A DNA stretch of 64,000 bases from positions 52,457 through 116,456 of the IMG/VR virus record IMGVR_UViG_3300028591_000122, one strand, 5' to 3'. Made by a program: the position numbers and the translations under genes. Positions 23,501 to 52,478 of this stretch are shown here, piece by piece; the stretch's first letter is position 1, and every line of letters begins with the position of its first letter. Source of the DNA: a virus (lineage: Duplodnaviria > Caudoviricetes). The notes below the pieces were generated by a model. It had not been told where the DNA came from. It was given only the letters and a program-made list of their open reading frames with translations, and did not search any database.

Positions 23501-26500
23501 AGTGTTAGAGAAATGGCTTAATACAATCAACTCGACTGTAGATAAGAACGAACAACTTCTTGAAACGACAAAAGATTTAGGAAAAGAAAGAGCGCAATTA
23601 ACTGATAATGCGTTAGAGTATAATCGCCTTGTAAGCCAAGGAACCGATGCGGAATTATATGACGAGTACGAAGCTAGACAACTTCTTGATGTTTTATATT
23701 CAATTAGAGATGTTTTACAGTTCATTCAAGATATCGAAGATGTTGGGCTTGAAGATGCTTTCAAAAACCTCATTACACAATGGGATTCAAGAAATACTTT
23801 CTTACAAGCGGCTGGATTTGATGGTAGTGTTTTTGAAGAAGTTCAACAATCTTTAGACTCCATCAAACGTTCATGGGATTCTATCACGGAAACGTTGAGT
23901 CCGTTTAGGGAAACTATTATTGATATATTGGAAGAGGTTTCTCCTTTGCTTGCTGAAATATTTAAGTCATTTGATTTATTAGATTTCGCTACTGCCGCCA
24001 TTACTCCTTTGAAGTTAGTTGAACTTGCATTTCAAAAGATATCGCAAGTTGTGGCAGAAACAGCAAGGGGTCTTGATGTAATATTCGGATATCTCAACCA
24101 ATTTGTATCTGCTCTTGATGAAATAACTAACCGTCTTCTTACGGCTCTTGCCGATAGGTTAGAATCAATGCCAGAACCTCCTCAATGGATTTTGGATTTC
24201 ATCGAGATATACCAGAACAATAGGAATAAGAGAATCAATACAAAGGATTCCAATAATGGTAAGGCACAATTGCCAGCAGATAATACTCTTGAATATTATG
24301 TTTCTCTTCCCGAACACGAGACTAAACAAACAACGGTTCAGTTCTCTGATACGCATGACGCTACACGACTTGGTGAACTTCTTTCTTCTGGAGGAAATTT
24401 AACCAATTCAACTTCTTGGGCTAAAATCAGAGATGAACTTGTGGGCATGGCTCAAGTAGGTAAACTCGACGAAACAACACTCAAGAGTTATGAACATTAT
24501 AAAGATATCCTTGACGCATTGGGTATATCAGCAGAAGACGCAGATAAGAATATCTCCGACATGATAGACACCATTAACCAAATGGCACAACAAAACGCTG
24601 TTGATGTATTGAATAAATATAAGACGGGTATTGATAGCCTTGATGATGCTTATCAGAAATTCAAGAAGGGTAAATTTATTGATGCGAGTACACTTGCTGG
24701 AATACAAGATACATTCGGCAACCTAGAATCCTATCAAGCATTTGAAGAAGCCGTAATGAGTGGCGAGAAGAATCTTCAAGAATACTTTGATGCTATTGTT
24801 ACAGAATATGCTATTCAAGAAAGTGCATTAGGAGAATTAACAGAAGCCAATAAAGATTGGGTTAAACAGCAACTCGTTGCATCTGGTATTACAGAAGCAA
24901 GTGCAGATAAAGCCATTAAACAATCTCTTGAAAGAAAGGCTTCTCTTGAAAACGAAATCCGTGCAACTCTTGAGTTGATGAACGCAGAAGTAGCAGAGAA
25001 GAAAGGTAGAGATGACCTTGTTGTGTCTACTGAAAATCTTGATAAATTAACCACAGAAGAAATTGTATTGTTGATGCAAGAAGCAAATATGTCGGGCGAA
25101 GCCGCACAAGCGGTTGCTTTGTTTGCTCTTAAGAAAGAATTAGCAAAAGATTCCGCATTAAGAAATCAAGACGACATTAACTATCTCTTGCAACTTATCA
25201 ATCTTGCAGACCTTGGTGGTAAGAAAGTCACTGAACTTAAGTATAAACTTGAGAATCAGCAGAAATATCAAGAGAGAGCCGATGCGCTCAGTAAGCGAGA
25301 AGAGGATTTCTACAAGAAACACGGAACGGATTCCTCGAAGTATTATAATGACCGAGGTGTTTACGAAGAATGGAAATCCATAACGGGAGAAAAACAATAT
25401 CTTGAGGATTGGCTAGGCAGTATTGACACGCTTTCGCAAGATGTCTTGGACGAAATCTATGGTCAACATCCAGAGTTAGACTATACGGTTGATTTAAACC
25501 TTGATTATGGTGGAGCGGTTGATTCTGCAAGCAAGGCAGGTTCCGAAGCGGCGAAAGCCTTTAAAGAGACATTAGATAAGATACTTGCAATGTATGATGC
25601 GGAATTAGATGCAGGAGTTGAGACATTTAAGAATTACGTCAATAAATCTCGTGCTGTAATCGAGCAGTATTACCAAGAAGGAAAGATAACGGCATCAGAA
25701 TACTATGACTACATAGCAAATCTGTATGAGAAACAAGTAAGCGAGTATGATAAAGTTATAAGTGCCGTTCAGAGAAAGATTAAAGAACAGATAGACTCTT
25801 TAGATAAAGAGAAAGAGTCAATTGAAGAAAGTTACAATCTTCAGATTGAAGAAATTCAAAAGAAGATTGATGCACTTCAAGAAGAGAACGATGAAATTGA
25901 CAGGAATATGGCTTTGTCTCGTGCTCAATACCAGTTGGCTAGAGCGCAACATCAAAGAACAAGGCTTATGTATTCTGAATCAAGAGGTTTCTACTACGAA
26001 GCAGACTTGCAAGGTATTGCAGATGCTCAAGAAAATGTCCGTAAGGCGCAATTAGATAAGACCGTTTCTGATTTGCAGAGAAGAATTACCACTCTTCAAG
26101 ATTCAATGAAACGTGAAACTGATGCGATTGATGAACAGATTAAATCACTCAATGAATTATCAGAAGCGTGGGGAGAAGTATCTTCCGTGCTTCAACATTC
26201 TATTGAGGATATGAGAGCAGAAGAAATTCTCGGCAAAGATTGGGAGCAACAGATATTTGCAGACCGTCAAAAGATACTTGAAGATTTCACAAATCAATAT
26301 GTTGCTTTACAACAAGCCCAGAAAGACGCATATCTTGCGGCAAGACAAGCCGAATTAGATTATCAGCCTAATCCTACAGGTAATTCTGGTGGAGGCGGTG
26401 GCGGTAATCAGGGCGATGGTGGTGGAGGAGGAAGCGACTTCTCAGATACTGGTCACGCCCAAACTGGTGGCAACACTAAAGGTGGAGACATTTCTCGAAA

Positions 26501-27250: not shown

Positions 27251-27616
27251 ATGGCAGTCACTGACAGTATATTGAAGACTATAGATTATGCTATAGGTAA
27301 ACGAACAGAACATTTAATGAATATGGATATATCGGGCATCATAGTCAGTATACCAGACAAAGATGACGCATATACCGTAAAAATAAGTAATCAAAATTAT
27401 AAAGTTCCAAACGGCTCCGGTCTTGGTTTTAAAGAGGGAGATACCGTATGGATACATTCTCCTAACGGAGATTTTAAAAGAAAATATATCATAGCAAAGA
27501 AAGTATCTAGCGCTAATCTATCACGTAATAGCGGTACGGGAGAGACAGGAGAAGGTGGTAGCATTGGTGATGATGATATAATCACGAATGAAGAAATAGA
27601 TGCTATGTTTGCATAA
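27251..27616 (+). CDS. Small baseplate/spike-like protein ending in ITNEEIDAMFA motif
   Basis: First gene after TMP; OB-like GDTVWI pattern. Confidence 0.45.
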   Translation: MAVTDSILKTIDYAIGKRTEHLMNMDISGIIVSIPDKDDAYTVKISNQNYKVPNGSGLGFKEGDTVWIHSPNGDFKRKYIIAKKVSSANLSRNSGTGETGEGGSIGDDDIITNEEIDAMFA

Positions 27617-27625
27617 GGAGGGAAT

Positions 27626-28417
27626 ATGGCGATAAACGTATCTTGTACTAATCACCCACATTACGGGTGCATTACGGTACAAACATCTCCCGGGAGTATA
27701 CCTTCGGGAGTTAATAAAGTTAGAATTAGTAAGAAAATATCATCAAAGTTTGTGTTTGTTTCCGTATACCTCAAAACAGTAAGTACGACGGCAGACTTAA
27801 CATTTACTTTTGACGATTATCTTTGTAGAAATAATGTTACTTATCAATACAAAGTTGACTATATACACGACATAGATTCGACGAGCTATAATATTATCGA
27901 ATCACAAACCTTTGAAATTAAATGTATGTTTGACTTATTGGTTATCAAGGATAGCGGAGAGACATATGCGACACCGTTAAATGCTTTTCCTATCAATACC
28001 AATACAATAAGACCATTTGTTTTAAACACACCTTTAATGACAAAGAAACCAAGTTACTATTCTATAGGCAATGCCCAATATAAAGAGGGTACTGCTCAAG
28101 GAGTATGGCTTAAAATGGTTGGAGAAGAAAACAATATTCAGTTTGAGACAGACCAAAACTGGGAATACAGAGAGAAGTTTGTTTCATTCCTTTGCAATGG
28201 ATTAGGTAAACTTCTCAAATCTGTTTCTGGAGAAATGTGGTTAGTCGGAATTAAATCTGATGGAATAAGTGATAGCAGTTTATTTTCTACTGCGGAAGTA
28301 GACGGTGCAAGACAAATTGAATTCGGTTGGATTGAAATCGGAGAAGTCGAATCGGAAAACGATTTGTACGAAAACGGTCTTATAAATGTTCCCAGTAAAT
28401 ATTGGAGTGGTACATGA
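27626..28417 (+). CDS. Putative distal tail/baseplate protein
   Basis: Synteny; FL.NG..KLLK..SGE.WLV and F.W.EIG motifs. Confidence 0.5.
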   Translation: MAINVSCTNHPHYGCITVQTSPGSIPSGVNKVRISKKISSKFVFVSVYLKTVSTTADLTFTFDDYLCRNNVTYQYKVDYIHDIDSTSYNIIESQTFEIKCMFDLLVIKDSGETYATPLNAFPINTNTIRPFVLNTPLMTKKPSYYSIGNAQYKEGTAQGVWLKMVGEENNIQFETDQNWEYREKFVSFLCNGLGKLLKSVSGEMWLVGIKSDGISDSSLFSTAEVDGARQIEFGWIEIGEVESENDLYENGLINVPSKYWSGT

Positions 28418-30531
28418 TAACGCCTGCACAATGGGAAGCTGTTAGGAAGCATATTATTCGTGCCAATATTACTTTAACGGTTAGTGAACAAGACGGAACA
28501 TATATTGATGAATTTAAAGGTATATGTAACGGGGGAAGTATTAACCTTGATGGTAATTCAGCAGTACGAAGAACTGCTTCTTTTAGCATAACTCCTACAG
28601 ACCAAATAACCAATATCTCCGAGCAATCACTTGTGTGGTTAAATAAAAATGTAACTGTAACATTGTATGTCAATGGTGTAACTTTCCATATGGGAGAATT
28701 TCTTTATACGAGCGCAAATGCAACTTATGATTCATCAACGAACTTGATGACAATTGAATTGTCGGATTGGATGGCAAAGTTAGACGGAACTATCAATGGA
28801 CAAATTGGTGGCGCTCCTACTATTGTCTGTCCTGCGTATAAAGAAGACCCCGAAACTGGAGAACCATTGGAATATAGTACAATTAAAGGTTATATAACAA
28901 AACAATTGGAAGCTTGCGGAATTACAGAATATGTGCCGGGTGGTCCTAGAATGAATAGATATGTGGTTGACGACATAGGCGAATATTATTGTATGCCACA
29001 CCCAGACCATCCAGAATGGAATTGGCAAGAATATAGAGCAAGATATCCTTTGTGGAATACAGTTCCTTATGACCTTGAATTTTCTATTGGTTGTACGAAC
29101 TGGGACATTATATCCGAACTCGTAAACCTTTATCCTAACTATGAAGCATACTTCGATGAGTACGGAACTTTTAGAGTAAATATGATACCGAGCGAATATA
29201 CCGAAGACTATGATTTTCAGTATGAAGATTATATAGATATGGTTATATCCGAGAATGTATCTACAGACCTTACTACTGTTCGTAATGTATGCGAAGTATG
29301 GGGAGCAACTCTTGATGCCGATTGGTATGCCAATAGTGTAGTACACGCGGACAGAGTTGATTTTTCATATCAAGTTTGGTTTGGAACACCTTCTCAAGAA
29401 TCTTCTACTTATAGTGTTCGATTGGTTCGAACTATAATGGGTGCTGGTGTTCCGGGTTCTGGTACATATAGCAAAGAGAAGACTTATACGTTTGGAGAAT
29501 ATACAAATACAAACGAAGACTGGTATGACATACATATTTCCTTTAGCAATCATACATTAATTTTGTCTTCTGCTTATGATTATTTATCTTCTTGGAGTTT
29601 AGGCGGGCAATATTATTCGGGGCAAGCGTTCTATACTTGCAATTATGATAATTGGGGACGATTGCCAGATTCTTATGCTGCTATTTTCTTAAACAAAGCC
29701 AATATTGCAAGCAGTGATTACGTAGTTATATTAGACGGATATTCTGACGATTACAGAACATCTACTAGGTTTGGTGTTAAGTTCGTAGAGAACAGTAATA
29801 CGGCTCAAATGATGCGTATCAATGATTTGTCTCCGTTGCCTATAATTGATTTTTCTACCAAACAGCCTATAGGTGCAAACTATTTTGATTTGAATGAGAT
29901 ACACGTATTCCAAATTGCAAAGATAAGAATCAGCGATGATAATTATACTCACCAAATTTATTATGTAGGTGTGGCACAAGCGCACGCTCTCAATGTTTTG
30001 ACCAATGGGGAAGTAGGTCCACAAGTTCCGTATATAGATGATATGGGTGTTCAGCGATATGTTATGAAGTATTCGGAAGATTATTATAAAATCTTTTTGA
30101 ATTGCCGACACGTTACATTTACACTTCAACCCGATTCTCCTTTTGTTGTACAGAAATTAGGAGATAGACTTGATGTTAAAGCCGACGGAGAGTTTTCAAA
30201 TATCCGTTCGGACGAATTGGCTATTGAGCGTGCCGAATACGAGAACTGGAAGAACGCAAGATTGTCTGATACAGTTTCTATCACAACTAAATTAATGCCA
30301 TTTGTAGAACCTAATATGAAGATTAGTTATAAGAAAAGCGGTTATAATTTTGTTGACGATTTTATTGTTCAATCAGTGTCTCACGATTTTGACCAAGGCA
30401 CAACGACAATTAATATGTCTACATTCTATCCGTTGTACAGAAGAGAACCGGGCAATTTGTATCTTATGACCTACAAGTATATGAGTGGCTTTAGAAACTC
30501 TGAATTATACGGTAATCAGGATTTAATGTAA
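28414..30531 (+). CDS. Baseplate hub/tail-associated protein
   Basis: Synteny; GSINLDGNSAVRRTAS N-terminus and VRNVCEVWG motif. Confidence 0.6.
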   Translation: MITPAQWEAVRKHIIRANITLTVSEQDGTYIDEFKGICNGGSINLDGNSAVRRTASFSITPTDQITNISEQSLVWLNKNVTVTLYVNGVTFHMGEFLYTSANATYDSSTNLMTIELSDWMAKLDGTINGQIGGAPTIVCPAYKEDPETGEPLEYSTIKGYITKQLEACGITEYVPGGPRMNRYVVDDIGEYYCMPHPDHPEWNWQEYRARYPLWNTVPYDLEFSIGCTNWDIISELVNLYPNYEAYFDEYGTFRVNMIPSEYTEDYDFQYEDYIDMVISENVSTDLTTVRNVCEVWGATLDADWYANSVVHADRVDFSYQVWFGTPSQESSTYSVRLVRTIMGAGVPGSGTYSKEKTYTFGEYTNTNEDWYDIHISFSNHTLILSSAYDYLSSWSLGGQYYSGQAFYTCNYDNWGRLPDSYAAIFLNKANIASSDYVVILDGYSDDYRTSTRFGVKFVENSNTAQMMRINDLSPLPIIDFSTKQPIGANYFDLNEIHVFQIAKIRISDDNYTHQIYYVGVAQAHALNVLTNGEVGPQVPYIDDMGVQRYVMKYSEDYYKIFLNCRHVTFTLQPDSPFVVQKLGDRLDVKADGEFSNIRSDELAIERAEYENWKNARLSDTVSITTKLMPFVEPNMKISYKKSGYNFVDDFIVQSVSHDFDQGTTTINMSTFYPLYRREPGNLYLMTYKYMSGFRNSELYGNQDLM

Positions 30532-30541
30532 GGGAGGATTT

Positions 30542-31087
30542 ATGGGAAAAGGATTAGTCGATAAACCTCACTTGCAGAGGTTCAAAACACATCTTGATAA
30601 TACGTTTGTCAAGAAAACAGAAAAAGCAACATTAGAAAGTTTTGGTATTGTTAAACCAGATGGTATATCAGTAACGGTGGCTGACGGAGTTCTGTCGGCT
30701 TCCGCTTCTGGTGTTAATTATTCCGAGATAGAACAACTATTAGGAATCACTTGGATTAACAATGAAAGACTTTATCAATCCACTATTGTTATGCGTAACC
30801 CCGTGTCTTGTACGGCAGGACAATGGAATGAAGTATGCGATGCTCCCAATGAGATAGATATGCTTATTAAGGGAGAATATACAGACGGAGCAATAAGTGG
30901 TGGAACACAAATCAAGCAAGAGAATGGTAAAATTTATGTATGTCCGAGTATTAACTGTAATGTAAAATACTTAACCATCTCTTATACAAAGGACATCGAA
31001 GAATTTATGTACGATTATACTTGGACAGAAGCCAGTGCTAAAACTTGGGACGACTTCATTGATACCAAGTGGAAAGGAGTATCGTGA
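30542..31087 (+). CDS. Fibre adaptor protein
   Basis: KAT...GIVKPDG fibre repeat; N-terminal LQRFKTHL and C-terminal TW..TW motifs. Confidence 0.5.
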   Translation: MGKGLVDKPHLQRFKTHLDNTFVKKTEKATLESFGIVKPDGISVTVADGVLSASASGVNYSEIEQLLGITWINNERLYQSTIVMRNPVSCTAGQWNEVCDAPNEIDMLIKGEYTDGAISGGTQIKQENGKIYVCPSINCNVKYLTISYTKDIEEFMYDYTWTEASAKTWDDFIDTKWKGVS

Positions 31088-33963
31088 GTACAACTACAAC
31101 AAATTTGGAATTAGTTAAGCCCGCGGGTAATGAGCGAGTTGATGTTGATGTTATCAATAGTAACTATGATAAGATAGACGAATTCGCTGGATTAGCCATT
31201 ACGGATGCTAACTATGTCCATACAGATAATAACTACACGACAACTGAAAAGAATAAATTATCTGCTATTCAACCTAATGCGACGGCAACATCGTTTACTC
31301 AAACATTAGTTTCTGGAACTGCTGTTGGTACTATCACTATCAATGGAACGCCCTATACTATTTATGCGCCTGCTTCTTCTGGAGGAGCTTCGGCACTAAA
31401 TGATTTAACTGATGTCACATTGGCAAATCCGTCAAACGGACAAGTGCTTAAATATAACGCAACGACTGGCAAATGGGAGAACGCAGACGAATCCGGGGGT
31501 GGCGGTGGCTATATACCAACAGGAGAAGTGTATACATTCTTTACTGATGGTTCTTCGGCAGCAGCCAACTATACTTTATATGTTCAATGGACGGACGGAG
31601 AAACAGTTACAACCGCTGTGATTGTTGAGTATGCCCAAATTATTGCCGGTTGGACAACAGGTGATTATCAGAACGTAACTATCAATTGGGATAGAAACAA
31701 TGCTTGTTTTAATTTCGTTGCAAAGACAGGTTCCTTTGAAAATGGTGGTACTTACTACGATGAAGGTGACACCATGGGAACTCTTACAAGTGGTAATATT
31801 ACATTTAATGCAGTCGAAAAAGAAGCCACAGGTGTTGAATGGACACAGATACAATCAAGCGGAACGAAGATTGCCGAAATTGAAATAGACGGAGTTCCTC
31901 AGAATGTATATGCTCCCACTCCACCTACAAAAACATCTGATTTGACCAACGACTCTAACTTTGTAGCAGATGCAAGTTATGTTCACACAGACAACAACTA
32001 TACTACTACAGAAAAAAACAAACTTTCAGGACTTGTTGGAGTTGAAGCAAACCCGTCTGGAACTGCAAGTACAGATTTGACAAAGATTGCCATAGGTGGA
32101 ACTAATTACAATATTCCATCTGGAGGTAGCGGAACTACAGTTATACCTAATCCCCAAGGAACTCCTACAGGTGAATTAAATACCATCCAAATTGGAAATG
32201 ATATTTATGAGATTCCTACAAGTTCTGATGAAGGTGGATATCTTACGGCAGATGGAAATTGTTATTCTACTCTACCTGTTTATTCGGACGAAAATGATAT
32301 TCTTAAGATTCAATTTAAGTTTTGGAGCAGTGATGCTGCCGCTGATAATCAAACGATAATTGGTAGTTCTTTTGCTGGTAATAGCGATTATCTGTTGTAT
32401 ATGACTGTTGAAAACGGGGAACCGATTTATAGTTATGCTGTAGCAAACGATTATACATACATTAAAGCGCCGAGAAGCACTGAGGACTATGACTACATTG
32501 AGCTTGGATATGATTACATGATTGTCAATGGAACGACTTATACATCACAAACACCAGCAAAACATTCTGTTCATAGACCTATATGCGTATTTGGTTCTAA
32601 CTATAGGGGTTCTGGTACCATTGGAGAAATCAAAATATATAAAAATGATGTTTTAACATATGATTTGGTTCCGTCACAGTGGAAGGGAAACGTTGGTAGA
32701 TTTATTGATGTATTAAATGATGATACTCCATATCCTAGTGAGGGTACGTCTGATTATGGTTATATAGGTACGAGCAGTGGAACAACTGTTATCGCTAACC
32801 CCGAAGGTGAAGCAACAGATACTTTAACCAAAATTCAAATTGGAAATGATATTTATGAGATTGTTGGAGGTGGTTCTGGAGATAGCGGATTCGAAAGAAC
32901 GCAATTATATGTCGCATCTGAAACAGAAACAGTTGTATCATTAAGCCAAAGCATTGCAGATTTTGATATGGTTGAGCTTGTTTCTTGGTACACTTACAAT
33001 GGAGTAGATTACACGGAAAATGCAATTTACTCGGCGAGAGACATGGAGAACGCAATAGGAACAGCAAAAGCATTCGGTGTTTATAATGATGCTTGGTTCA
33101 CCTATTACAGAGTAAATGATGTTGATGAATTAGAATGCATAGCCAATAATAATAGTTGGTATGTAAAAGAAATCTACGGCTTGAAGTTTAATGGCGGTGG
33201 CTCAGCAGAATGGACAGATGTTGTCGGAACTCTTGAAGCAGGACAAACACAAATTGTTTTAACAAGTAGTAAGATTAAGGCAAACTCTGTTGTTAATCCT
33301 TATGCGAGCAAAGTGGGAGTTAAGGCTACTAATATGGTTATTGCCAAGGGTAGTGTTACTTTGACATTCCCCGTACAGACAGAGAATTTAGATGTTATGG
33401 TTAGAGTGACTAAGGTTAATACAAATCATACTTATGACATTGATTTAAGTCATTTGCAGACAGATAAATCTTGGTTCTATTATGATGATGCAGTATCTTC
33501 TGTAAATGATACAGGCGATGGCTTACAGATTTCAGGAAATGATACTCGAATCGATTGGACAACTTTAGGTGCAATTGGTATCAATATAAGCAACATGGTA
33601 GGGGCTATTCCGTCTACTCTGTCGGCACTTAAATTACACTTTAATACCTTTAGGATGAGCGGATATACTGGTGTAAGATTCATAAATAGCGATACTTTAT
33701 ATTCTGGTTCAACTGGTGGCGGTGATGGATTTTTAAGGATACCGGGATTCTATCAATTTGAGAACAATAATTCTACCGTCGAAGAAGAAGATTACACTCT
33801 TGAAATCCCTTGTACTCCTTCGAATCTAACGAATACTTATCTGTACATTATGTTCTTTGATGGAATGATTACGGGAAATATGAGTTATTATGATAATGGT
33901 CTTAATGGCTCCTATAATGTTGCCATAGATGGAATAGACTTTGTGACAGGAGGTGATTCATAA
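31084..33963 (+). CDS. Modular tail fibre/adhesin (internal repeats, ConA/LamG-like domain)
   Basis: TTNLELVKP attachment motif; YVHTDNNYTTTEKNKLS twice; IQIGNDIYEI twice; GQVLKYN..TGKWEN. Confidence 0.75.
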   Translation: MSTTTTNLELVKPAGNERVDVDVINSNYDKIDEFAGLAITDANYVHTDNNYTTTEKNKLSAIQPNATATSFTQTLVSGTAVGTITINGTPYTIYAPASSGGASALNDLTDVTLANPSNGQVLKYNATTGKWENADESGGGGGYIPTGEVYTFFTDGSSAAANYTLYVQWTDGETVTTAVIVEYAQIIAGWTTGDYQNVTINWDRNNACFNFVAKTGSFENGGTYYDEGDTMGTLTSGNITFNAVEKEATGVEWTQIQSSGTKIAEIEIDGVPQNVYAPTPPTKTSDLTNDSNFVADASYVHTDNNYTTTEKNKLSGLVGVEANPSGTASTDLTKIAIGGTNYNIPSGGSGTTVIPNPQGTPTGELNTIQIGNDIYEIPTSSDEGGYLTADGNCYSTLPVYSDENDILKIQFKFWSSDAAADNQTIIGSSFAGNSDYLLYMTVENGEPIYSYAVANDYTYIKAPRSTEDYDYIELGYDYMIVNGTTYTSQTPAKHSVHRPICVFGSNYRGSGTIGEIKIYKNDVLTYDLVPSQWKGNVGRFIDVLNDDTPYPSEGTSDYGYIGTSSGTTVIANPEGEATDTLTKIQIGNDIYEIVGGGSGDSGFERTQLYVASETETVVSLSQSIADFDMVELVSWYTYNGVDYTENAIYSARDMENAIGTAKAFGVYNDAWFTYYRVNDVDELECIANNNSWYVKEIYGLKFNGGGSAEWTDVVGTLEAGQTQIVLTSSKIKANSVVNPYASKVGVKATNMVIAKGSVTLTFPVQTENLDVMVRVTKVNTNHTYDIDLSHLQTDKSWFYYDDAVSSVNDTGDGLQISGNDTRIDWTTLGAIGINISNMVGAIPSTLSALKLHFNTFRMSGYTGVRFINSDTLYSGSTGGGDGFLRIPGFYQFENNNSTVEEEDYTLEIPCTPSNLTNTYLYIMFFDGMITGNMSYYDNGLNGSYNVAIDGIDFVTGGDS

Positions 33964-34898
33964 TGGCTTTTTATCCAATAAATGTAGGCGAAAGTAGCGG
34001 TGGTGGTGGTCATACTATTTTAGACGATAATGGAACATCTCTTGCTCAAGAAAGTAATTTACAATTCAGAGGAGCATATTCACGTGATGATTCTACAAAT
34101 GGAAAAACAGTTGTTGAAGTTTCTCGTTCTATGACTAAAGCAGAATTTGACCAATTAACAGAAGCAGAAAAGGTAGGAATTATTAATGTTACTGACGAAG
34201 AGGAACTTCCTTGGAAAGATATAACGGGAGTCTTACCCGCGGGAGAAACAGAAATAATTTTGAGCGATGATGCCATAACGGACAATTCAACTTTTGAGGC
34301 TTTCACAGACCCTATTGAAGTCAGCCATACGGATATGGTACTTGCTAATGAACCGTCATTGATAAACGATATTTTATCAAGTGCTGATGATACCAAAGTT
34401 ACGGCTTCTTCTAATGATACGGCAGAGGTGGTACCTTGGAAAGCATTCGATGGAATAAAGGGCGTGTCAAGTGGCACTTATGCGAGCCCGTATTATGCTT
34501 GGCTTCCGGGAAACGGAGATGCCCCTTGTTGGTTACAATATCATTTTGCTACTGCAAAGTACATAGACGAAGTTAAAGTATATGTGTACTGTAATAATGG
34601 AGCCTATACAGGCTCTGCAAAGATTCAAGGTTCGAATGATGGAACAAGCTGGACAGATATATCTTCTGCTGTTTCTATTAGCGCACCTTATGGCGAAGAA
34701 ATAGAACTTGATTTCACTTGTGATAGTAATCAGTATTCCTATGTCAGACTTTATAGTGAAACCGCGTTTACTGTTTATGGTGGCGCAAGTATCTTTGTTG
34801 GAGAGATGGAAATTTACGGAAGAAATAGCGCTTATGGAGTGAAAGTTACCTTCCCTGCTCAAGCAGAAAATCTTAATGTGAAAGTGAGGATATCATAA
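33963..34898 (+). CDS. Fibre protein with inserted discoidin (F5/8 type C) domain
   Basis: PWKAFDG, WLQYHF, IQGSNDGTSWTD, YSYVRL motifs. Confidence 0.7.
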   Translation: MAFYPINVGESSGGGGHTILDDNGTSLAQESNLQFRGAYSRDDSTNGKTVVEVSRSMTKAEFDQLTEAEKVGIINVTDEEELPWKDITGVLPAGETEIILSDDAITDNSTFEAFTDPIEVSHTDMVLANEPSLINDILSSADDTKVTASSNDTAEVVPWKAFDGIKGVSSGTYASPYYAWLPGNGDAPCWLQYHFATAKYIDEVKVYVYCNNGAYTGSAKIQGSNDGTSWTDISSAVSISAPYGEEIELDFTCDSNQYSYVRLYSETAFTVYGGASIFVGEMEIYGRNSAYGVKVTFPAQAENLNVKVRIS

Positions 34899-36601
34899 TG
34901 GCTTATTTTAAAAGTAATAAAGTAGAAACAAGAATAGCAAATATCCTCAAAGGAACTTCTGACCCCGCTTCTTCTATTGGCGATAATGGACAGTTGTATT
35001 TGAAGTATGCGGACCTTTCATTAAGAGAATACATTGAAGTTGGAAGTACGGCTGGACCATATATTAATACTGGATTTTATTGGAGTTCAGATTGTGAATT
35101 TGAAATAAAAGCCAAATGGACAGGCACCCCTGCAAACAACACCGCTTTTTTTGGAGCTTATTCTCCAAATCAAGACACAGATGTTCAAGTGTATAATGGC
35201 AATACTTTATTTTATGTTGGAGGAGGAGGCACTGCAAGTCTGTCGATAGATACTGATGACCATATATATAAAGCAACTCAATCTGAATTGCTATTAGATG
35301 GAACTAGTGTTGCAACCCCCAATTGGAGCAGAGTTCCTGCGAGCTTGGAAGTATCTATATTTACTATGCAACAGCATTCTCCGGCAATTAATGCGAGAAT
35401 ATATTATATAAAAATATGGAAAAGCGGAGAATTGCACAAATACTTTATTCCTGCTGTAAATAACGCAACTAACGAAATAGGAATGTTTGAAGCAGTTAGT
35501 GGTGAATTTTATTCTAACGACGGAACTGGTAATTTTGATATTAGTTCATCTGTCATATTGGATATGCCAAGTCGCCCTATTTTGTCTTCCTTTGCCAAAG
35601 TTAACGACCAATGGCAAAGCCTTATAGGTACTAACGTTGATGAAATCACTTATGCTAGTAATCCACCTAAGACTGTTTCTTATCTTAAATGGCAAATTAC
35701 AAAGTCAAGAAGTGTTCCTGCTGGTGGATGTATACAAATCGCTGAATTTAGATTATATCAAAATGCAGAGAAATATGTTTGGAACAGTAATGTTTCTATT
35801 TCAAGCGATATGACAGGCGTTTCGGGAGAAACTATTGATAAGTTAATTGATGATAACACTAACACAAAATTTAACACACAAGATTGGGGAAGCGTCCAAG
35901 AGAATGAGTGTAATATTATTATCAATTTAGGTGAAACAATCACATTGACAAACACTTCGTCATATTGTTTTGTAACTGCTAATGATGAAATCAGTCGTGA
36001 CCCTGTTTCGTGGAAATTATATAGCAGTGTTGACGGAACGAATTGGGATTTGTTAGACGAAAGAACAGATGCGGATGTACCTACGGATAGAGAGAGACAA
36101 ACCTTTAATTACCCTTGTAAAATAAGTGGCGGAAGTCCACAGCCAGATGATAGGACATATCTGTTTAAAGATGGTGAATGGAAAAATCAAGATATTTTAA
36201 GTTTATATGGATATAAAACATCCGTAGAAAACGGAAGTTTAAAGTGCACAGGAACTCATGCTGGTGTAGTAGTTGATGATGTGAGTGGCTTGGATAGCAG
36301 TGTAACACAGTATAGCGTTTATCTAAAAGTCAGAGCAGGAAATATAAATAGTTACCCATTACAAACAGGAAGAAATGTTCCCACTCAAAATTTATATGAC
36401 ATTATTCAGTATGGAACAGATAGATATTCGTATAATACTGATTATATAAGCAGTGGAACGGATTATTTATTTATATTAATTGCATTATATAATACAGACG
36501 GAATATTTTTAGGGGCAGAAAATTATACAGATGAGAATGCTTATTATTACATTGATGAAATATGGCTTGAAGCTTCAGCACAAGTAATTGTTCATTCTTA
36601 A
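34898..36601 (+). CDS. Fibre/adhesin with ConA-like and discoidin-like domains
   Basis: YINTG...ARIYYIKIW...FIPA; RDPVSWKLYSSVDGTNW. Confidence 0.65.
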   Translation: MAYFKSNKVETRIANILKGTSDPASSIGDNGQLYLKYADLSLREYIEVGSTAGPYINTGFYWSSDCEFEIKAKWTGTPANNTAFFGAYSPNQDTDVQVYNGNTLFYVGGGGTASLSIDTDDHIYKATQSELLLDGTSVATPNWSRVPASLEVSIFTMQQHSPAINARIYYIKIWKSGELHKYFIPAVNNATNEIGMFEAVSGEFYSNDGTGNFDISSSVILDMPSRPILSSFAKVNDQWQSLIGTNVDEITYASNPPKTVSYLKWQITKSRSVPAGGCIQIAEFRLYQNAEKYVWNSNVSISSDMTGVSGETIDKLIDDNTNTKFNTQDWGSVQENECNIIINLGETITLTNTSSYCFVTANDEISRDPVSWKLYSSVDGTNWDLLDERTDADVPTDRERQTFNYPCKISGGSPQPDDRTYLFKDGEWKNQDILSLYGYKTSVENGSLKCTGTHAGVVVDDVSGLDSSVTQYSVYLKVRAGNINSYPLQTGRNVPTQNLYDIIQYGTDRYSYNTDYISSGTDYLFILIALYNTDGIFLGAENYTDENAYYYIDEIWLEASAQVIVHS

Positions 36602-36628
36602 AGAAAATTACAAACATTAAACAAACTT

Positions 36629-36663
36629 AAGATAGTGGGAGTGAAATACCTCTCACTATCTTT
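36629..36663 (+). terminator. Stem-loop/terminator between fibre genes
   Basis: AAGATAGTGGGAG/CTCTCACTATCTT 13-bp stem. Confidence 0.55.
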
Positions 36664-36678
36664 GCGAAAGGAGATTTT

Positions 36679-38283
36679 ATGGCTACAATTTATATAGACG
36701 GAGTGAAGTCTAAACGCATGGCTATTGGAACTACCGAAATAGCCAATATCCTTAAAGGTACTTCTGACCCTTCTTCTAGTATTGGCGGTGATGGACAATT
36801 ATATTTGAAATATGGTAGTTATGAAAAGCATTATTTTATGGATAATAAGATAGTTGTTGTTGAAAACAAAAATGATGCTACTGATTTAAAATTATATATT
36901 GTCGGACTTACGAAAGATTCAAGCGGTATTGCTATAACGGACACTGATTTGCTTGCTTATTTAAGCGATATAACAAGTGGATATTTAAAGGCTTGTTGCA
37001 CTTATGACACGGCAGATTCAACAACACAAACAGGATTACTTGCAATAGGAGATTGGGGAGATGGTATGACATTACATACCTATATTCCCGGTTGGACACA
37101 ATATAAAGCAGGAACATTTTACGGAGTTCTTGATTTAACAGAATCTCCCGTTTCAACACAAGGCTTTCCTGTTTATCAAGAAAATCCGTTTGTTAACCCT
37201 GACGCATTTACTGATGGTGGGATTCTTGATTCCTTTGCTAAAGTTAATAACTTATGGCAAAACCTCATGGGTACTAACATTGATGATATTTTAGCTGGTG
37301 GTAGTAAATACATCAAGGCAACAGGCTCATTTACATCAGGTACTGCATCTCAGCAAAAAGTAGAAGTAGACTGTGGATTTAAACCAGACCTTGTTATGGT
37401 TGATATGGAATTTGGTAATGGATTCACAAGAGCAACATATTTAAGCACTGCTTGGTATGAAGAAACAGACCATCCAGCTTCCGTATGGGATTTAAGACCG
37501 ATGGAATCTGTTATTTATGCAATTACTCCAGAAAGTGTAGAAGGAGAAACTGGTATAACGGATTTAACAGATACTGGATTTAAGTATCGAGTAAATGGTG
37601 GAAATACGCAAGGAAAAGCTTGTACTTACACAGCTATTAAGTTTGATGTAAAAGAAGCTCCAGAACCAATTGTTCCTTTCGAAAAAGAGATTTTACATTC
37701 AATAGTGCAAGACCAAAGCGGAAGGTCAGTTCCTGTTTCTGTAACATTTACAAACGATTATCAAATAGCATTTATTTGTGGATTGATTGCAGATAATGTA
37801 TATACAGGTGCTATTTCTGTAAACGCTCTCGGCGGTGCAAGTGAAATATATGGATTATCAGGCAATAGATATGCTTCAGCAGGAATTGCTATTCGACTTC
37901 CAAGCAATAAGACTTTGATAGGATATTTCCCTTACTCAGATGGCGGTGCTTATTATGATATGTTCGGTGCTATTGGAATGAGCAGACTTCCGTCAGAATA
38001 TGAAATCGGAGCAACTATTGATGTATCAAACATTAGCATAGAATTAAGTAAAGTTTATGACCATATTGTTGTATTTGTTGGTATGGATTCGACCGATTCC
38101 AACAGCATAACGCTTGCCATGAACGGAACAAGTATTCCATTAACAGTAGAAAGCGACAAGTTTAGCCGATACAGTTATCACGCATCTCAAGAACTTACAA
38201 GCGATTCAACAACTTTAAACTTTACATATTCAGGAGGTACAGTTGCTGATAATACAATAGTAGTATTTGCATACAATGAATAA
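36679..38283 (+). CDS. Fibre/adhesin sharing a scaffold with 34898..36601
   Basis: Shared IANILKGTSDP..GQLYLKY and SFAKVN..WQ.L.GTN.D.I blocks; VDCGFKPDLV motif. Confidence 0.65.
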   Translation: MATIYIDGVKSKRMAIGTTEIANILKGTSDPSSSIGGDGQLYLKYGSYEKHYFMDNKIVVVENKNDATDLKLYIVGLTKDSSGIAITDTDLLAYLSDITSGYLKACCTYDTADSTTQTGLLAIGDWGDGMTLHTYIPGWTQYKAGTFYGVLDLTESPVSTQGFPVYQENPFVNPDAFTDGGILDSFAKVNNLWQNLMGTNIDDILAGGSKYIKATGSFTSGTASQQKVEVDCGFKPDLVMVDMEFGNGFTRATYLSTAWYEETDHPASVWDLRPMESVIYAITPESVEGETGITDLTDTGFKYRVNGGNTQGKACTYTAIKFDVKEAPEPIVPFEKEILHSIVQDQSGRSVPVSVTFTNDYQIAFICGLIADNVYTGAISVNALGGASEIYGLSGNRYASAGIAIRLPSNKTLIGYFPYSDGGAYYDMFGAIGMSRLPSEYEIGATIDVSNISIELSKVYDHIVVFVGMDSTDSNSITLAMNGTSIPLTVESDKFSRYSYHASQELTSDSTTLNFTYSGGTVADNTIVVFAYNE

Positions 38284-38307
38284 ATTAATGATTGAAAGGA
38301 GAAGTAT

Positions 38308-39171
38308 ATGGCAAAAGTAATTATGACAAGTGATGAATTAGTCGCAAGACTTGAAACACTTGCTAATAAAAAAACATTTTATAAAAATAAATATCCGTAT
38401 AATTTAGGTTTGGTTGCACCGCCTAAAAGTCAAAAAGAATTTTCAGATATTGTAAGTAAAAAGACTAGATGGAACTATAATCCTTATAACGAACTTGCAA
38501 GGTCTTTTGATTGCAATAATCTCTTAAAGGCTTTATTGAACGGCTACGACATTAATAACAACACCGTTGGTTATTATCAAGCAAACTTAAGTAACACGGG
38601 TGATTGTTCGGAGTATAGGCTTTTACAGCAATGCTCTAATATTTCTAAAGACTTTACCAAACTTAATGCCGTTTCTTTACTGTATATGTCTGGACACGTT
38701 GGCACGTATATAGCCAAAGAAGTTGTTCGTAATGGCAAAACCTATAATGTAATCGAATGTACACCTGCATTTGGTAACGGTGTAGTTTATTCTTGGGTTG
38801 ATACCAACGGAACAAGACGCGAATGCAAAGGCGGTGAAGCGAGAGGAGTATGGACACAACACGGATTATTTACTCCTTGGGTTTCGTACTCTGGTACAAC
38901 GCAACCTTCTCAACCTACCAAAGTAGATGTGAGCAAATATCCCTTATTGCGTATGGTATATAATGCAAAAACAAAAACGTATACCACGAGGGGTTCTTAT
39001 GTTCTTAAACTTCAACGGATTCTTGTAAGCAAAGGATATGACCCTAAAGGTTGTGACTCAGTTTTTGGTCCCGGTTGCGACAAGGCGGTTCGACAATTCC
39101 AGAAAGATTCTGGGCTTGTGGTAGACGGTAAAGTTGGTCCGAAGACTTGGGACAAACTTATAAACGGATAA
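38308..39171 (+). CDS. Endolysin: NlpC/P60-like Cys-His peptidase with PG-binding domain
   Basis: SFDCNNLLK, GHVGTY, IECTP; C-terminal LQRIL...FG...AVRQFQ..GLVVDGKVGPKTW. Confidence 0.75.
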   Translation: MAKVIMTSDELVARLETLANKKTFYKNKYPYNLGLVAPPKSQKEFSDIVSKKTRWNYNPYNELARSFDCNNLLKALLNGYDINNNTVGYYQANLSNTGDCSEYRLLQQCSNISKDFTKLNAVSLLYMSGHVGTYIAKEVVRNGKTYNVIECTPAFGNGVVYSWVDTNGTRRECKGGEARGVWTQHGLFTPWVSYSGTTQPSQPTKVDVSKYPLLRMVYNAKTKTYTTRGSYVLKLQRILVSKGYDPKGCDSVFGPGCDKAVRQFQKDSGLVVDGKVGPKTWDKLING

Positions 39172-39184
39172 GGAGGGACTATAA

Positions 39185-39532
39185 GTGATTCCTACTTGTG
39201 AAATTATCCCCACAAAAGTGGAGATATATAGGGGAACTACCCCTACTATTATGGTTCATCTTCGTAATATTGACTTTGAAATGAGCGATATAGCAAAAGC
39301 ACAAGTTACTCTCGAAGATGACAGAGGACGCAATCAAAAGGTATTTAATGACCCAACGATTGACCAAGAAAACAAAACTATTTCTATCGAACTTTCGCAA
39401 GCTGATACACTCTCATATGACTATGGTATGCTCAACTTACAAATCCGTATTAAACTTAATAGCGGACGAGTTGCTCCTACGAAAATCTACTCAATAAAAA
39501 TGGGTAGAACTCTTAATGAGGAAATCTTATGA
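39185..39532 (+). CDS. BppU-N-like baseplate/fibre anchor protein
   Basis: IYRGTTPT...LSQADTL...QIR pattern. Confidence 0.55.
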   Translation: MIPTCEIIPTKVEIYRGTTPTIMVHLRNIDFEMSDIAKAQVTLEDDRGRNQKVFNDPTIDQENKTISIELSQADTLSYDYGMLNLQIRIKLNSGRVAPTKIYSIKMGRTLNEEIL

Positions 39533-39960
39533 TAGACGGTACTATAAATACTACTCTGCATATTGATGCGGATTTAATAGATAGTAAACCTCTTGAAGCG
39601 GATATTACAACTACTTCTAACATTGACGGAGAAATACAAACACCTGATTTGTTAGAAGCAGATGTAGCACCGCAGAACTCGGAAATAGGAGCAACATTAG
39701 AAACAGGAACTTTAATTGGTAACGGAGAGGGTTCAACGGTTATAGTTAACCCTCCCGATGAACCAAGTGGTCATATGAGAACTATTAAGGTTAATACGGA
39801 AACCTATGATTTAGACGAAGTAGACCCTACTGTTCCGCAATGGGCAAAGACACCCAGTAAGCCTAATTACACGGCAGAAGAAGTTGGAGCAGTAGACGCA
39901 GACAACGAATTAGCATACGCAGAAATAGATAGAATGTTTAACGCAGTATTTGGCATTTAA
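39529..39960 (+). CDS. Fibre anchor protein ending in EIDRMF motif
   Basis: EVDPTVPQWAK...YTAEEVGA fibre repeat. Confidence 0.6.
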   Translation: MIDGTINTTLHIDADLIDSKPLEADITTTSNIDGEIQTPDLLEADVAPQNSEIGATLETGTLIGNGEGSTVIVNPPDEPSGHMRTIKVNTETYDLDEVDPTVPQWAKTPSKPNYTAEEVGAVDADNELAYAEIDRMFNAVFGI

Positions 39961-39973
39961 GAGGAGGAATGTA

Positions 39974-40594
39974 ATGTCACAGACAATAAACTATATCGGC
40001 TCTGTCGATACTTTATACATATTAACAAAACTCAAAGCCGTTTTACAGGCTGGATGGGTTGCTAAGGACGGAACAAAACAGTTATCAGATGAGAACTTTA
40101 CTTCCGCTCTTAAAACTAAACTTGAAGGAATTTCTGCTGGTGCTACAGCTACTTCTTTTACCCAGACTTTAGCACAGGGAACAAAGATAGGTGAGATTAC
40201 TATTGATGGAACTACTATCAATGTATACGCTCCTGAACCTCAAGGAATAACAATTGATACACAGATGTCAGATGTATCGGAAAATGCTGTTCAAAATAAG
40301 GTAATTAAGCAGTATGTTGATGATGCAGTAGGCTCTGTTGTCGGTGTTGAATTTAGAAAAGTACAGGCTCTCCCTCAAACTGGTGAGAATGGTGTTATAT
40401 ATTTGTTACCGAAGTCAGGAACTCCACCTACAGGCAACGTCTATGAAGAGTATATTTGGATATCTTCAGACTCTGCTTATGAGAAGATTGGTGAGACTTC
40501 TATTGACTTAAGCGGTTATGTACAGAGTAGTGACCTTGTTGAGATAACCACAAGCGATATTGATACGATGTTTGCTACTGTATTCGGTAGTTAA
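39974..40594 (+). CDS. Fibre subunit (head-fibre-like) with both terminal docking-like motifs
   Basis: KQLSDENFT..LKTKLEGI, SENAVQNKVI, LPQTGENGVIYL, YEEYIW..YEKIG repeats. Confidence 0.65.
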   Translation: MSQTINYIGSVDTLYILTKLKAVLQAGWVAKDGTKQLSDENFTSALKTKLEGISAGATATSFTQTLAQGTKIGEITIDGTTINVYAPEPQGITIDTQMSDVSENAVQNKVIKQYVDDAVGSVVGVEFRKVQALPQTGENGVIYLLPKSGTPPTGNVYEEYIWISSDSAYEKIGETSIDLSGYVQSSDLVEITTSDIDTMFATVFGS

Positions 40595-40618
40595 GAATGG
40601 TAAGGACGGTGATTGCTT

Positions 40619-42718
40619 ATGTCATGGGATATTTTACCTAAGAACGTCCTGCAATATTTTCTTACAAAACTAAAAGGTTTGATGTACACCAAAACTGAAG
40701 TTGATAGTTTGATTCCAGATTCCCTTTCGGATTTATCAGATGATTCAACTCATAGACTTGTAACTGATACCGAGAAAACGGCTTGGAGTGGCAAGAGCGT
40801 TGTTTCAGCCAATCCACAGAGCACCACAGAAACTTTAAGCGGAATTGAAATTGATGGAACTGGATATACATTTCCCGGTTCGAGTTCAGTAACTGGCGTA
40901 AAAGGTTCTGCGGAACAGAATTATCGGACTGGAGATGTTAGTATCAGTGCTAATAATGTTGGAGCACTAGGAGTTGTTGGTAATGTTACGGTGTCATCTT
41001 TGGATGATTTAGTCGCATTATGTTTAAATAGTGGTAATAATAAAGCATTTGAAGGACCAATAAATATTTCTACGGATATTGGTGTTGGAATGACTGGATG
41101 GTGTAATACTATTGGTGCTTGTTTAAATGCACCTAATAACGGAAATAGTAATATTGGACTATTTTGTTTATTTATGTCCACAAGAACTTCTGTGAATCCT
41201 AGATACGCAATAATCGACGGAAAAACAACCGGGAATTATTCGGTAACTGCTACTGGCATATTTACAAAAAGTTCGGATATACCAGATATTTCTACAAAAG
41301 TGTCTAAGTCTGGCGATACTATGACAGGAGCATTATCATTTAATGCTGATATGGTTCAAATAGTACATAGAAACAATTCATCGTGGTATTGTTATGAAGC
41401 ATATGAAACAGCTGGAAACGAAGCAATGGTTTATGCAACTCAACAAGGTAAGTCTAGTTTCATATGGGTAAATGGTGAAGATAGAGCAAATGTTGCTAAT
41501 AATAGATGGCAATCATTAATCCCAGGATTACAAATTAAAAATAATTGTGTATCTATTGGAAAATTAATAGAAAATGATGTAATGCCATCATATAAGTTAG
41601 AAGTAAATGGTGTAACAAAATCTACTGCATTTGATGGTAATTTGAAATATACTCATACTAACGAAATTAATTTCGGTGGTGGTAATCAATCTATTTGTTA
41701 TTTCAATTATAGAAATGCTGATACTGAACAAGCAGCTGCTGTTAGTAGTATGGCGTATAAATTTTGTAATTATAGTAACGATACATCAAAGAGTAATATC
41801 CTTGCTGGATATTTTAATGGCTATACAATAGGAAAATCAGTACCATCGAATGCCGTTTTTTCAGATGCCAATGTAGCACAGACTAACACCACAGGCAATG
41901 CAGCATATAGAGTTTTATATTCTGTAAATGCTGATGATGCAGATAGAGTAGAGGGGGCAAGAAAAGGTCGAATATATTTTAATCCGAGCAATGGAATGTT
42001 TTGGGCAAGTAATGGTACTAACCAATTTCAAATAGGTAATAATTATTTGTATTTGAATGGAAAAATAACTTTAATACAAGCTGGTAATCAACAATTAACA
42101 ATATCAGCAACTACTTCTGCTAGTGGTGAAACAAATTATAGAGTAGCATTAGGCGTTTACAATAATGCTTGGACTTTTAAGCCATTTACTGATAAATCTT
42201 TGACTCTTGGTCAAAGTAGTGAAAGATGGGGACAAATATATTCATCAAATTCTGCAATTTCAACATCTGATAGGAAAGAAAAGAAAGATATTGTTTCGCT
42301 TGATGAATTTGCTAGAACTTTAATAATGTCACTTAACCCAGTTTCATACAAATTTAAAGATGGAGACTCTGGACGAACCCATTATGGCATGATAGCTCAA
42401 GATGTCGAAGATTCACTAGAAGAACTTGGAATAACGGCTATAGACATTGCTGCTTTTTGCAAAGATAAAAAATTAAAAGATATTCCAGTATTCTCAGGGC
42501 AAAGAGATTCTAAAGGAAATCCTATATATGATAAAAAGCAAGTGCCAATACCGGGTGAATACGTCTACGGTCTTCGTTATGAAGAGTTCATAGCACCTAT
42601 AATTAAGACGGAACAACTTCAACAAGAAGATATTAACTCTCTTAAAGAAGAGATTTCTTTGCTTAAAGAAGAAATTGCATTACTTAAACAAAGATTAAAA
42701 ATATTGGAGGACAAATAA
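40619..42718 (+). CDS. Tail fibre with C-terminal intramolecular chaperone (peptidase S74)
   Basis: TSDRKEKKDI, LNPVSYKF, HYGMIAQDV, LRYEEFIAP followed by coiled coil. Confidence 0.85.
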   Translation: MSWDILPKNVLQYFLTKLKGLMYTKTEVDSLIPDSLSDLSDDSTHRLVTDTEKTAWSGKSVVSANPQSTTETLSGIEIDGTGYTFPGSSSVTGVKGSAEQNYRTGDVSISANNVGALGVVGNVTVSSLDDLVALCLNSGNNKAFEGPINISTDIGVGMTGWCNTIGACLNAPNNGNSNIGLFCLFMSTRTSVNPRYAIIDGKTTGNYSVTATGIFTKSSDIPDISTKVSKSGDTMTGALSFNADMVQIVHRNNSSWYCYEAYETAGNEAMVYATQQGKSSFIWVNGEDRANVANNRWQSLIPGLQIKNNCVSIGKLIENDVMPSYKLEVNGVTKSTAFDGNLKYTHTNEINFGGGNQSICYFNYRNADTEQAAAVSSMAYKFCNYSNDTSKSNILAGYFNGYTIGKSVPSNAVFSDANVAQTNTTGNAAYRVLYSVNADDADRVEGARKGRIYFNPSNGMFWASNGTNQFQIGNNYLYLNGKITLIQAGNQQLTISATTSASGETNYRVALGVYNNAWTFKPFTDKSLTLGQSSERWGQIYSSNSAISTSDRKEKKDIVSLDEFARTLIMSLNPVSYKFKDGDSGRTHYGMIAQDVEDSLEELGITAIDIAAFCKDKKLKDIPVFSGQRDSKGNPIYDKKQVPIPGEYVYGLRYEEFIAPIIKTEQLQQEDINSLKEEISLLKEEIALLKQRLKILEDK

Positions 42719-52148: not shown

Positions 52149-52478
52149 TCAATCAATGTAATCTATTACATCGTCTATATGTAATATCACATCACAAATC
52201 GCTGAATATCTCGTATTTTGTGGTTCTTCCTCGTGGTAATATCCGATGATTTCTAAATTGTGTTCTTCTGCAAGAGCAAACAAGATTGCAGTTGTCGTGT
52301 CTATAAAATCCAAATCAACAATCAATGTGTCGTTTCGACTTATTGCTCTTATCAATTTCTTGATGCTAATCTCTGTATTTGAATTTTCAATAAACTCACC
52401 GCCGTAATAATGTCTTTCTCCTATTTCTTTCGACAGTATTTGCACATCGTCTCGGATTCCACAAAATATAATATTCAT
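52149..52478 (-). CDS. Hypothetical protein, weak nucleoside deoxyribosyltransferase-like pattern
   Basis: DTLIVDL..T..A..A....IIG alpha/beta pattern. Confidence 0.3.
   Translation of the reverse strand: MNIIFCGIRDDVQILSKEIGERHYYGGEFIENSNTEISIKKLIRAISRNDTLIVDLDFIDTTTAILFALAEEHNLEIIGYYHEEEPQNTRYSAICDVILHIDDVIDYID

Follow-up and report, generated by a model that had tools for sequence, protein, structure and literature searches.

The right-hand 64 kb of a 116,456-bp phage genome assembled as one contig (IMG/VR record IMGVR_UViG_3300028591_000122, positions 52,457 to 116,456; 64,000 nucleotides, referred to here as the window) carries a tail and fibre gene region in which short peptides recur at the ends of separately encoded proteins. 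Genes are named by the window position at which they start (Table 1). One peptide, referred to here as the C peptide, ends the products of 27251, 39529 and 39974; the other, the N peptide, opens those of 39974 and 40619 and, in a diverged form, that of 30542. In the table, OB denotes the oligonucleotide/oligosaccharide-binding fold.

Table 1. Genes of the window discussed in the text, with those of the two proposed fibre systems first
Gene	Window coordinates	Strand	Length (residues)	Product and features
27251	27251–27616	+	121	Protein of the tail-tip block; helix at the N terminus, OB-like barrel, disordered linker rich in Gly, C peptide 27578–27610
30542	30542–31087	+	181	Adaptor, right after the Tal-like gene; diverged N peptide 30554–30601
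39185	39185–39532	+	115	β-Sandwich protein (phrog_15594, PHROG E = 8.6e-10); first gene of the four-gene cassette
39529	39529–39960	+	143	C-only linker; C peptide 39907–39939, then six-residue tail ending V-F-G-I
39974	39974–40594	+	206	Middle segment (phrog_24103); N peptide 39992–40039, fibre repeat, β knob, C peptide 40541–40573
40619	40619–42718	+	699	Distal fibre; N peptide 40631–40678, C-terminal Peptidase_S74 intramolecular chaperone
Tape measure	14556–27203	+	4,215	First in the tail and fibre gene order of the window
27626	from 27626	+		Dit-like protein (phrog_27355), directly after 27251
28402	from 28402	+		Tal-like protein (DUF5048, phrog_1887), between 27626 and 30542
31069, 33963, 34898, 36679	from the positions named	+		Fibre or lectin-like proteins; F5/8 type C domains in two of the four
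38308	38308–39171	+	287	C-terminal PG_binding_1 domain; endolysin-type PHROG matches

The core of the C peptide is T-N-x-E-I-D-x-M-F, and a regular expression for this motif finds exactly three matches in the six reading frames of the window (27581–27610, 39910–39939 and 40544–40573), all of them between one and six residues ahead of a stop codon; there are none elsewhere in the genome. An earlier sequence-only reading, which had noticed three proteins ending in the same motif, is thereby borne out. Beyond the core the C ends differ: 27251 stops one residue past it, whereas 39529 and 39974 carry a six-residue tail with V-F-G. The N peptide is a strand followed by a helix. When the 363 open reading frames (ORFs) of the genome were ranked with scoring matrices built from other phages only, 27251, 39974 and 39529 came first, second and third for the C peptide, and 40619 (score 24.5) and 39974 (9.2) came first and second for the N peptide. 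Of the three N-terminal helices that had been taken as shared, those of 39974 and 40619 are, therefore, well founded, whereas that of 30542 is diverged (score 0.9, rank 5 of 363); its sequence, V-D-K-P-H-L-x-R-F-K-x-x-L-D, is nevertheless invariant in five other phages (L082, L084, L095, L096 and L097), in which the remainder of the protein is variable, and it is similar to the N-peptide subtype of loci L058 and L080. Alignments of homologues back the ATG starts that had been assumed for 39974 and 40619. The description of the motif-bearing proteins as unrelated was inexact: 39974 and 40619, together with 31069, have fibre repeat segments in common.

The conserved parts of these proteins lie at their ends. 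In the 27251 family the C end is the most conserved part, the C peptide being invariant behind a Gly-rich linker, and the gene always sits between those for the tape measure and the Dit-like protein. The AlphaFold2 model of 27251 has a helix at residues 3–23, strands over 26–84, a segment at 87–103 in which the predicted local distance difference test (pLDDT) score is below 50, and a helix at 113–119. A VIA-align search with this model gave a best Z of 8.5 and many phage spike and hub OB domains, yet within the stated noise range of the tool, which is why we call the barrel only OB-like. Both ends of 39974 are conserved in family alignments, and its model consists of a helix at residues 10–25, a confident knob at 126–176 and a helix at 193–204; a Foldseek search of the PDB with it gave no match below E = 0.5. 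The match of 39974 to phrog_24103 (E = 1.8e-19) covers residues 31–200, and that family has no known function. A phi29-type head fibre (PF11133) was considered for 39974 and rejected: there is no match at E ≤ 1, the relative P0155 matches only over a 52-residue repeat segment, and the ‘head fibre’ name given in a protein atlas derives from this common repeat segment only. The distal protein 40619 is readily classified through its Peptidase_S74 domain (PF13884, E = 1.6e-14; 54.4 bits, cut-off 22), and it also matches PHROG tail-fibre families. A blastn search of 39185–42718 against phage records returned no match.

Two further observations concern the peptides in relatives of these proteins. 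In two loci (L009, 5427–5690, and L011, 4408–4671), the C-only linker bears a C-like motif at its beginning as well. Within the knob of 39974 (window 40400–40500), the segment Y-D-E-Y-I-W...W-E-K-I-G cross-scores with the N-peptide matrix, reaching 16 bits in relatives (P0249, P0276 and P0318); this may reflect either chance or a distant kinship of knob and handle.

Co-occurrence and adjacency of the two motifs across phage genomes, which the sequence-only reading had named as a way to judge its proposal, were examined in loci gathered with a profile of the 39974 family. This gave 79 viral loci together with streptococcal Javan prophages, from which 35 non-redundant loci were analysed; locus L047, with five C ends, was set aside because its assembly is fragmented and ridden with frameshifts. 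Neighbouring genes were scored with BLOSUM-smoothed matrices made from the 39974-family termini only, against an empirical background of 443 genes, in place of hmmsearch, with which diverged neighbours fall below the cut-offs. In 28 of 33 loci the gene upstream was flagged for its C end (empirical p ≤ 0.017), and in 32 of 33 the gene downstream was flagged for its N end (p ≤ 0.009), most of the exceptions being mis-called starts or split genes. With leave-one-out scoring, the exact order of C-only, N-plus-C and N-only genes was found in 24/35 loci, such that the distribution of motifs described for the window, with each C motif beside an N motif, recurs in most of these diverse loci. A strict DNA pattern for the N peptide retrieved eight loci, and the same chain was present in four of five that were new. 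The downstream proteins range from 51 to 1,441 residues and are alignable over the first ~25 residues only; unrelated tips, therefore, have one handle in common. Consecutive genes would, on this evidence, be segments in their order of assembly, as in a serial fibre; the last member carries tip domains.

The cassette usually begins one gene further upstream. In 29/36 loci, the 39974-like gene has a homologue of 39185 no more than 1.5 kb upstream of it, and the unit is, therefore, a four-gene cassette, in which 39529 appears as a small linker usually placed behind the conserved β-sandwich gene; its supposed role as a baseplate anchor is unsupported. It is possible that 39185 is the piece that attaches this fibre to the virion. 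Searches with the profile of its family against PDB sequences and Pfam scans of the members gave no credible identity; only 1 of 21 members matched PF23926, the T5 LtfC-like collar family, and that weakly (E = 0.068).

The terminal position of both peptides is strict. Among hidden Markov model matches of at least 8 bits, the C peptide lies within 10 residues of the stop codon in 79 of 81 and the N peptide within the first 25 residues in all 108, and neither peptide has a match on the non-coding strand. An exhaustive profile search for the knob family yielded 16,016 cluster representatives at E ≤ 1e-3, and 144 of the best matches were taken as representatives at 50% identity. In these, C matches were terminal in 88 cases and internal in 7, N matches were terminal in 87 and internal in 2, and both peptides were present in 79 of the 144, as they are in 39974. 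Where the same knob is found inside a longer, continuous fibre, as in that of Methanobrevibacter smithii tailed virus 1, both peptides are absent, which suggests that they stand in for a covalent link between fibre parts. A natural fusion, P0319 (573 residues; two independent assemblies), joins the two: a single chain runs from the knob through the C peptide, a 13-residue Gly/Ser/Asp linker and the N peptide to a tip domain. The gene that precedes it encodes a Sipho_Gp37 (Tal-like) protein, the last residues of which are a variant of the C peptide. This fusion, more than any other observation, suggests that the two peptides adjoin in the folded fibre and, through its context, that a bona fide tail-tip protein can serve as the start of a chain.

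We consider it likely, on comparative grounds, that the two peptides together make a non-covalent joint by which fibre segments from separate genes, probably trimeric, are connected head to tail. The protein nearer the virion would end in a capped, two-turn amphipathic helix (T/S-N-x-E-I-D-x-hydrophobic-hydrophobic), and the next would begin with a short strand and an amphipathic helix (Y-L-D-x-x-G-L-x-Y-F-W-x-K-I-K and variants); three C and three N peptides would then contact one another directly and pack into a small bundle, which would replace the covalent link at the helical neck of the fibre. The proposal that these are cognate docking halves had been made from the window alone; partner behaviour is now supported by junction order, terminal position, loss in continuous relatives, fusion and selection, whereas direct contact, the geometry of the bundle, its trimeric stoichiometry and the place of the fibres on the virion are what we infer.

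The same facts have to be set against a reading in which the peptides are never in mutual contact: the N peptide would be a handle that fixes each fibre to a shared site on the virion, the C peptide a trimerization or capping tag, and their adjacency a consequence of the clustering of fibre genes. Shared N-terminal handles for virion attachment are indeed established elsewhere, as for the LtfA/Ltf N-terminus in T5-like phages (PMC10713586). Such an arrangement would, however, leave unexplained why the first protein of the chain has no N peptide and the last no C peptide, why C and N ends are balanced in number, why the peptides are lost where the fibre is one polypeptide, and why the single fusion keeps them only 13 residues apart; we regard it as unlikely.

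The balance of the ends also bears on how the proposed joints would be used. There are three C and three N ends in this genome, two of each in the complete Javan191 genome, and two of each in 24 of the 35 partial loci (about 12 kb each), such that every end would have a partner in a 1:1 chain. The sequence-only reading had all three C peptides feeding one fibre. Instead, 27251 consistently pairs with 30542: the two genes, although separated by two others, co-occur in six of six phages, in each of which the gene after that for Tal opens with the same invariant N peptide on an otherwise variable protein. One of these phages (L082) keeps the pair, and the 20 kb read of its 42-kb contig holds no homologue of the 36679–42718 block, the genes that flank this block in the window adjoining each other there. 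Because of this phage, and because the C ends differ, two separate systems, 27251→30542 and 39529→39974→40619, are likelier than one. In the first, system A, the OB-fold protein 27251 is proposed as the anchor, which would offer its C peptide on the flexible Gly-rich linker to its proposed partner, the adaptor 30542, which in turn would carry the fibres that follow. In the second, system B, the portable cassette of 39185 (β-sandwich), 39529 (C only), 39974 (N and C) and 40619 (N only, with a self-chaperoning S74 tip) would build one fibre of fixed order and 1:1:1 composition. Most likely, judging from these sequences, the fibre has a fixed composition and is made of separate proteins clipped together at their ends.

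A further junction of another type may follow system A. Members of the 30542 family mostly end in a Trp-rich peptide, T-W-x-E-A...T-W-x-D...W (window 31040–31190), and 31069, which overlaps 30542, has a start, T-T-N-L-x-L-x-K-P...N-Y-D-K-I-D, that is conserved in L082, L084, L096 and L097; in L095, the gene after the 30542 relative begins differently.

A less rigid use of the peptides can also be imagined. The pair might be a general and partly promiscuous connector, presenting alternative tips on several anchors or permitting the self-addition of 39974, so that an unchanging set of genes would yield fibres that differ in length or composition. Small differences between peptides, as between the C end of 27251, which is short, and those of 39529 and 39974, which are extended by the V-F-G tail, would make some pairs orthogonal. 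We think this quite unlikely. Its extreme form, in which 39974 polymerizes head to tail to a variable length, with 27251 or 39529 as its start and 40619 or 30542 as its cap, is close to what the sequence-only reading had put forward. The two complementary ends on one subunit that a pilus-like polymer needs are present in 39974, and peptides are more alike within a phage than across phages (25.9 versus 18.4 for C peptides and 39.5 versus 26.5 for N peptides, p < 1e-4), with no obvious discrimination in sequence. Against this, the ends balance 1:1 in both whole genomes and two C and two N ends are the rule in the partial loci, for which reason self-association of 39974 is not needed; differences in length within the family (152 to 636 residues) are encoded, as internal insertions; some loci encode two different N-plus-C proteins in tandem (L080); and in L082, 27251 has its partner while no homologue of 39974 is found in the 20 kb examined. 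We, therefore, consider a long polymer of 39974 very unlikely, and favour the fixed chain of distinct segments.

Selection acts on the peptides as protein. Between the window and locus L005, in which the family protein is 52% identical, the motif codons have undergone 10 synonymous and two non-synonymous changes at each end, and the downstream protein is wholly divergent past codon 20. That the junctions are DNA-level recombination linkers for swapping fibre modules, with the peptides as by-products, is highly unlikely: downstream tips are unrelated past the N peptide, as exchange at the junction would give, and the two junctions of the window are somewhat similar in DNA around the stop codon and ribosome-binding site, but in the motif codons synonymous change has reached saturation and the residues are nonetheless conserved, an alignment of the two junctions over ~180 nucleotides has scattered matches and no extended run of high identity, and the 27251/30542 pair is conserved although two genes apart. 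A covalent, SpyTag-like isopeptide tag pair was also considered and dropped, because no reactive residue is invariant across loci: seven residues (D, N, E, Q, L, I and K) occur at the Asp position, and the Lys positions are not constant either.

Several points weigh against the proposed joint, or against parts of it. The monomer models of 39974 and 27251 are of low confidence (pLDDT 59.8 and 65.9), and the trimeric state is an assumption drawn from fibre biology and the S74 domain. As most loci were sampled via the 39974 family, the adjacency statistics are conditional on that family, and P0319 is a single fusion among 2,677 proteins and ORFs. The C and N peptides covary after control for knob similarity (r = 0.42 and 0.46, p = 0.0006), but this is confounded and weak evidence, because the halves of a junction lie within ~100 bp of each other and are inherited together. 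The case for system A comes from co-occurrence in six related phages, because the N end of 30542 is not significant by the general matrix, and the absence of system B from L082 is judged from 20 kb of a 42-kb contig.

Of the fibres that have been described, the closest in organization is the long tail fibre of T4, in which the separately encoded segments gp34, gp35, gp36 and gp37 are assembled end to end (PMC5537660). The likeness is one of organization and would lie in side-by-side genes, the products of which are joined from the virion-proximal to the receptor-binding end. By contrast, the present proteins are far smaller than those of T4, their joint is found repeatedly as a portable cassette, and the hosts are Firmicutes-type or rumen organisms. 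In the T5-like phage DT57C, one fibre protein is attached through another (LtfA/LtfB, with the collar protein LtfC), and N-terminal strands ahead of the helical part of the fibre dock on a small β-sandwich protein of the tail-tip block (PMC10713586). This arrangement is comparable to 39185, as a β-sandwich, and to 27251, as a small protein encoded between the tape measure and Dit genes; however, no sequence relationship was found, and 27251 models as an OB barrel and not as an immunoglobulin-like collar.

In the BppU–BppL pair of the Gram-positive siphophage TP901-1, the adaptor uses its C-terminal part to hold the N-terminal helices of the distal trimer. Both halves of the junction proposed here are, by contrast, short terminal peptides and not domains, and no window protein has a Pfam or PHROG match to the BppU or BppL families. 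A model of this lactococcal phage is given in PMC10747895. As in other fibres with the Peptidase_S74 (endosialidase-chaperone) domain, this domain in 40619 marks a distal, self-folding trimeric fibre; the family definition is silent on its N-terminal handle. Pfam holds no family for the N peptide, and a literature search found no description of this peptide pair; a lead to a ‘six-helix bundle’ (PMC13232314) concerns the tape measure and not fibres. What differs from known fibres is, then, the peptide pair itself and how strictly it keeps to protein termini, together with the portability of the four-gene cassette and the breadth of its occurrence.

If the joint is confirmed, the wiring of a fibre (which protein sits on which, and in what order) would be readable from sequence for very many unannotated phage proteins, and many of the tiny ‘hypothetical’ genes that lie between the tail and lysis genes of streptococcal and gut prophages would be accounted for. 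It would also provide a compact natural connector, of ~12 residues on one side and 16 on the other, with which receptor-binding tips could be exchanged among phages of Gram-positive and gut bacteria, for which host-range engineering has so far had few standard parts.

The remainder of the region presents some features of its own. The tape measure protein is very long, those of relatives ranging from 3,298 to more than 5,377 residues, which implies an unusually long tail. The product of 38308, encoded within the fibre gene block and outside any lysis cassette, could be either a virion-associated lysin or an endolysin. The proteins encoded by 34898 and 36679 have a common N-terminal module of ~25 residues (34933–35009 and 36738–36814, 84% identical as DNA), beyond which they are no longer alike; the module looks like another handle, distinct from the N peptide, on two distal proteins. 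Within 31069, an 87-nucleotide repeat (32128–32214 and 32776–32862, 75% identity) encodes the fibre segment that recurs in 39974 and 40619. Finally, rearranged repeats of 94–98% identity lie near both ends of the contig (window 62899–64000 versus genome 1240–1969), where two ORFs are identical over their first 40 residues; these could represent either terminal redundancy or an assembly overlap.

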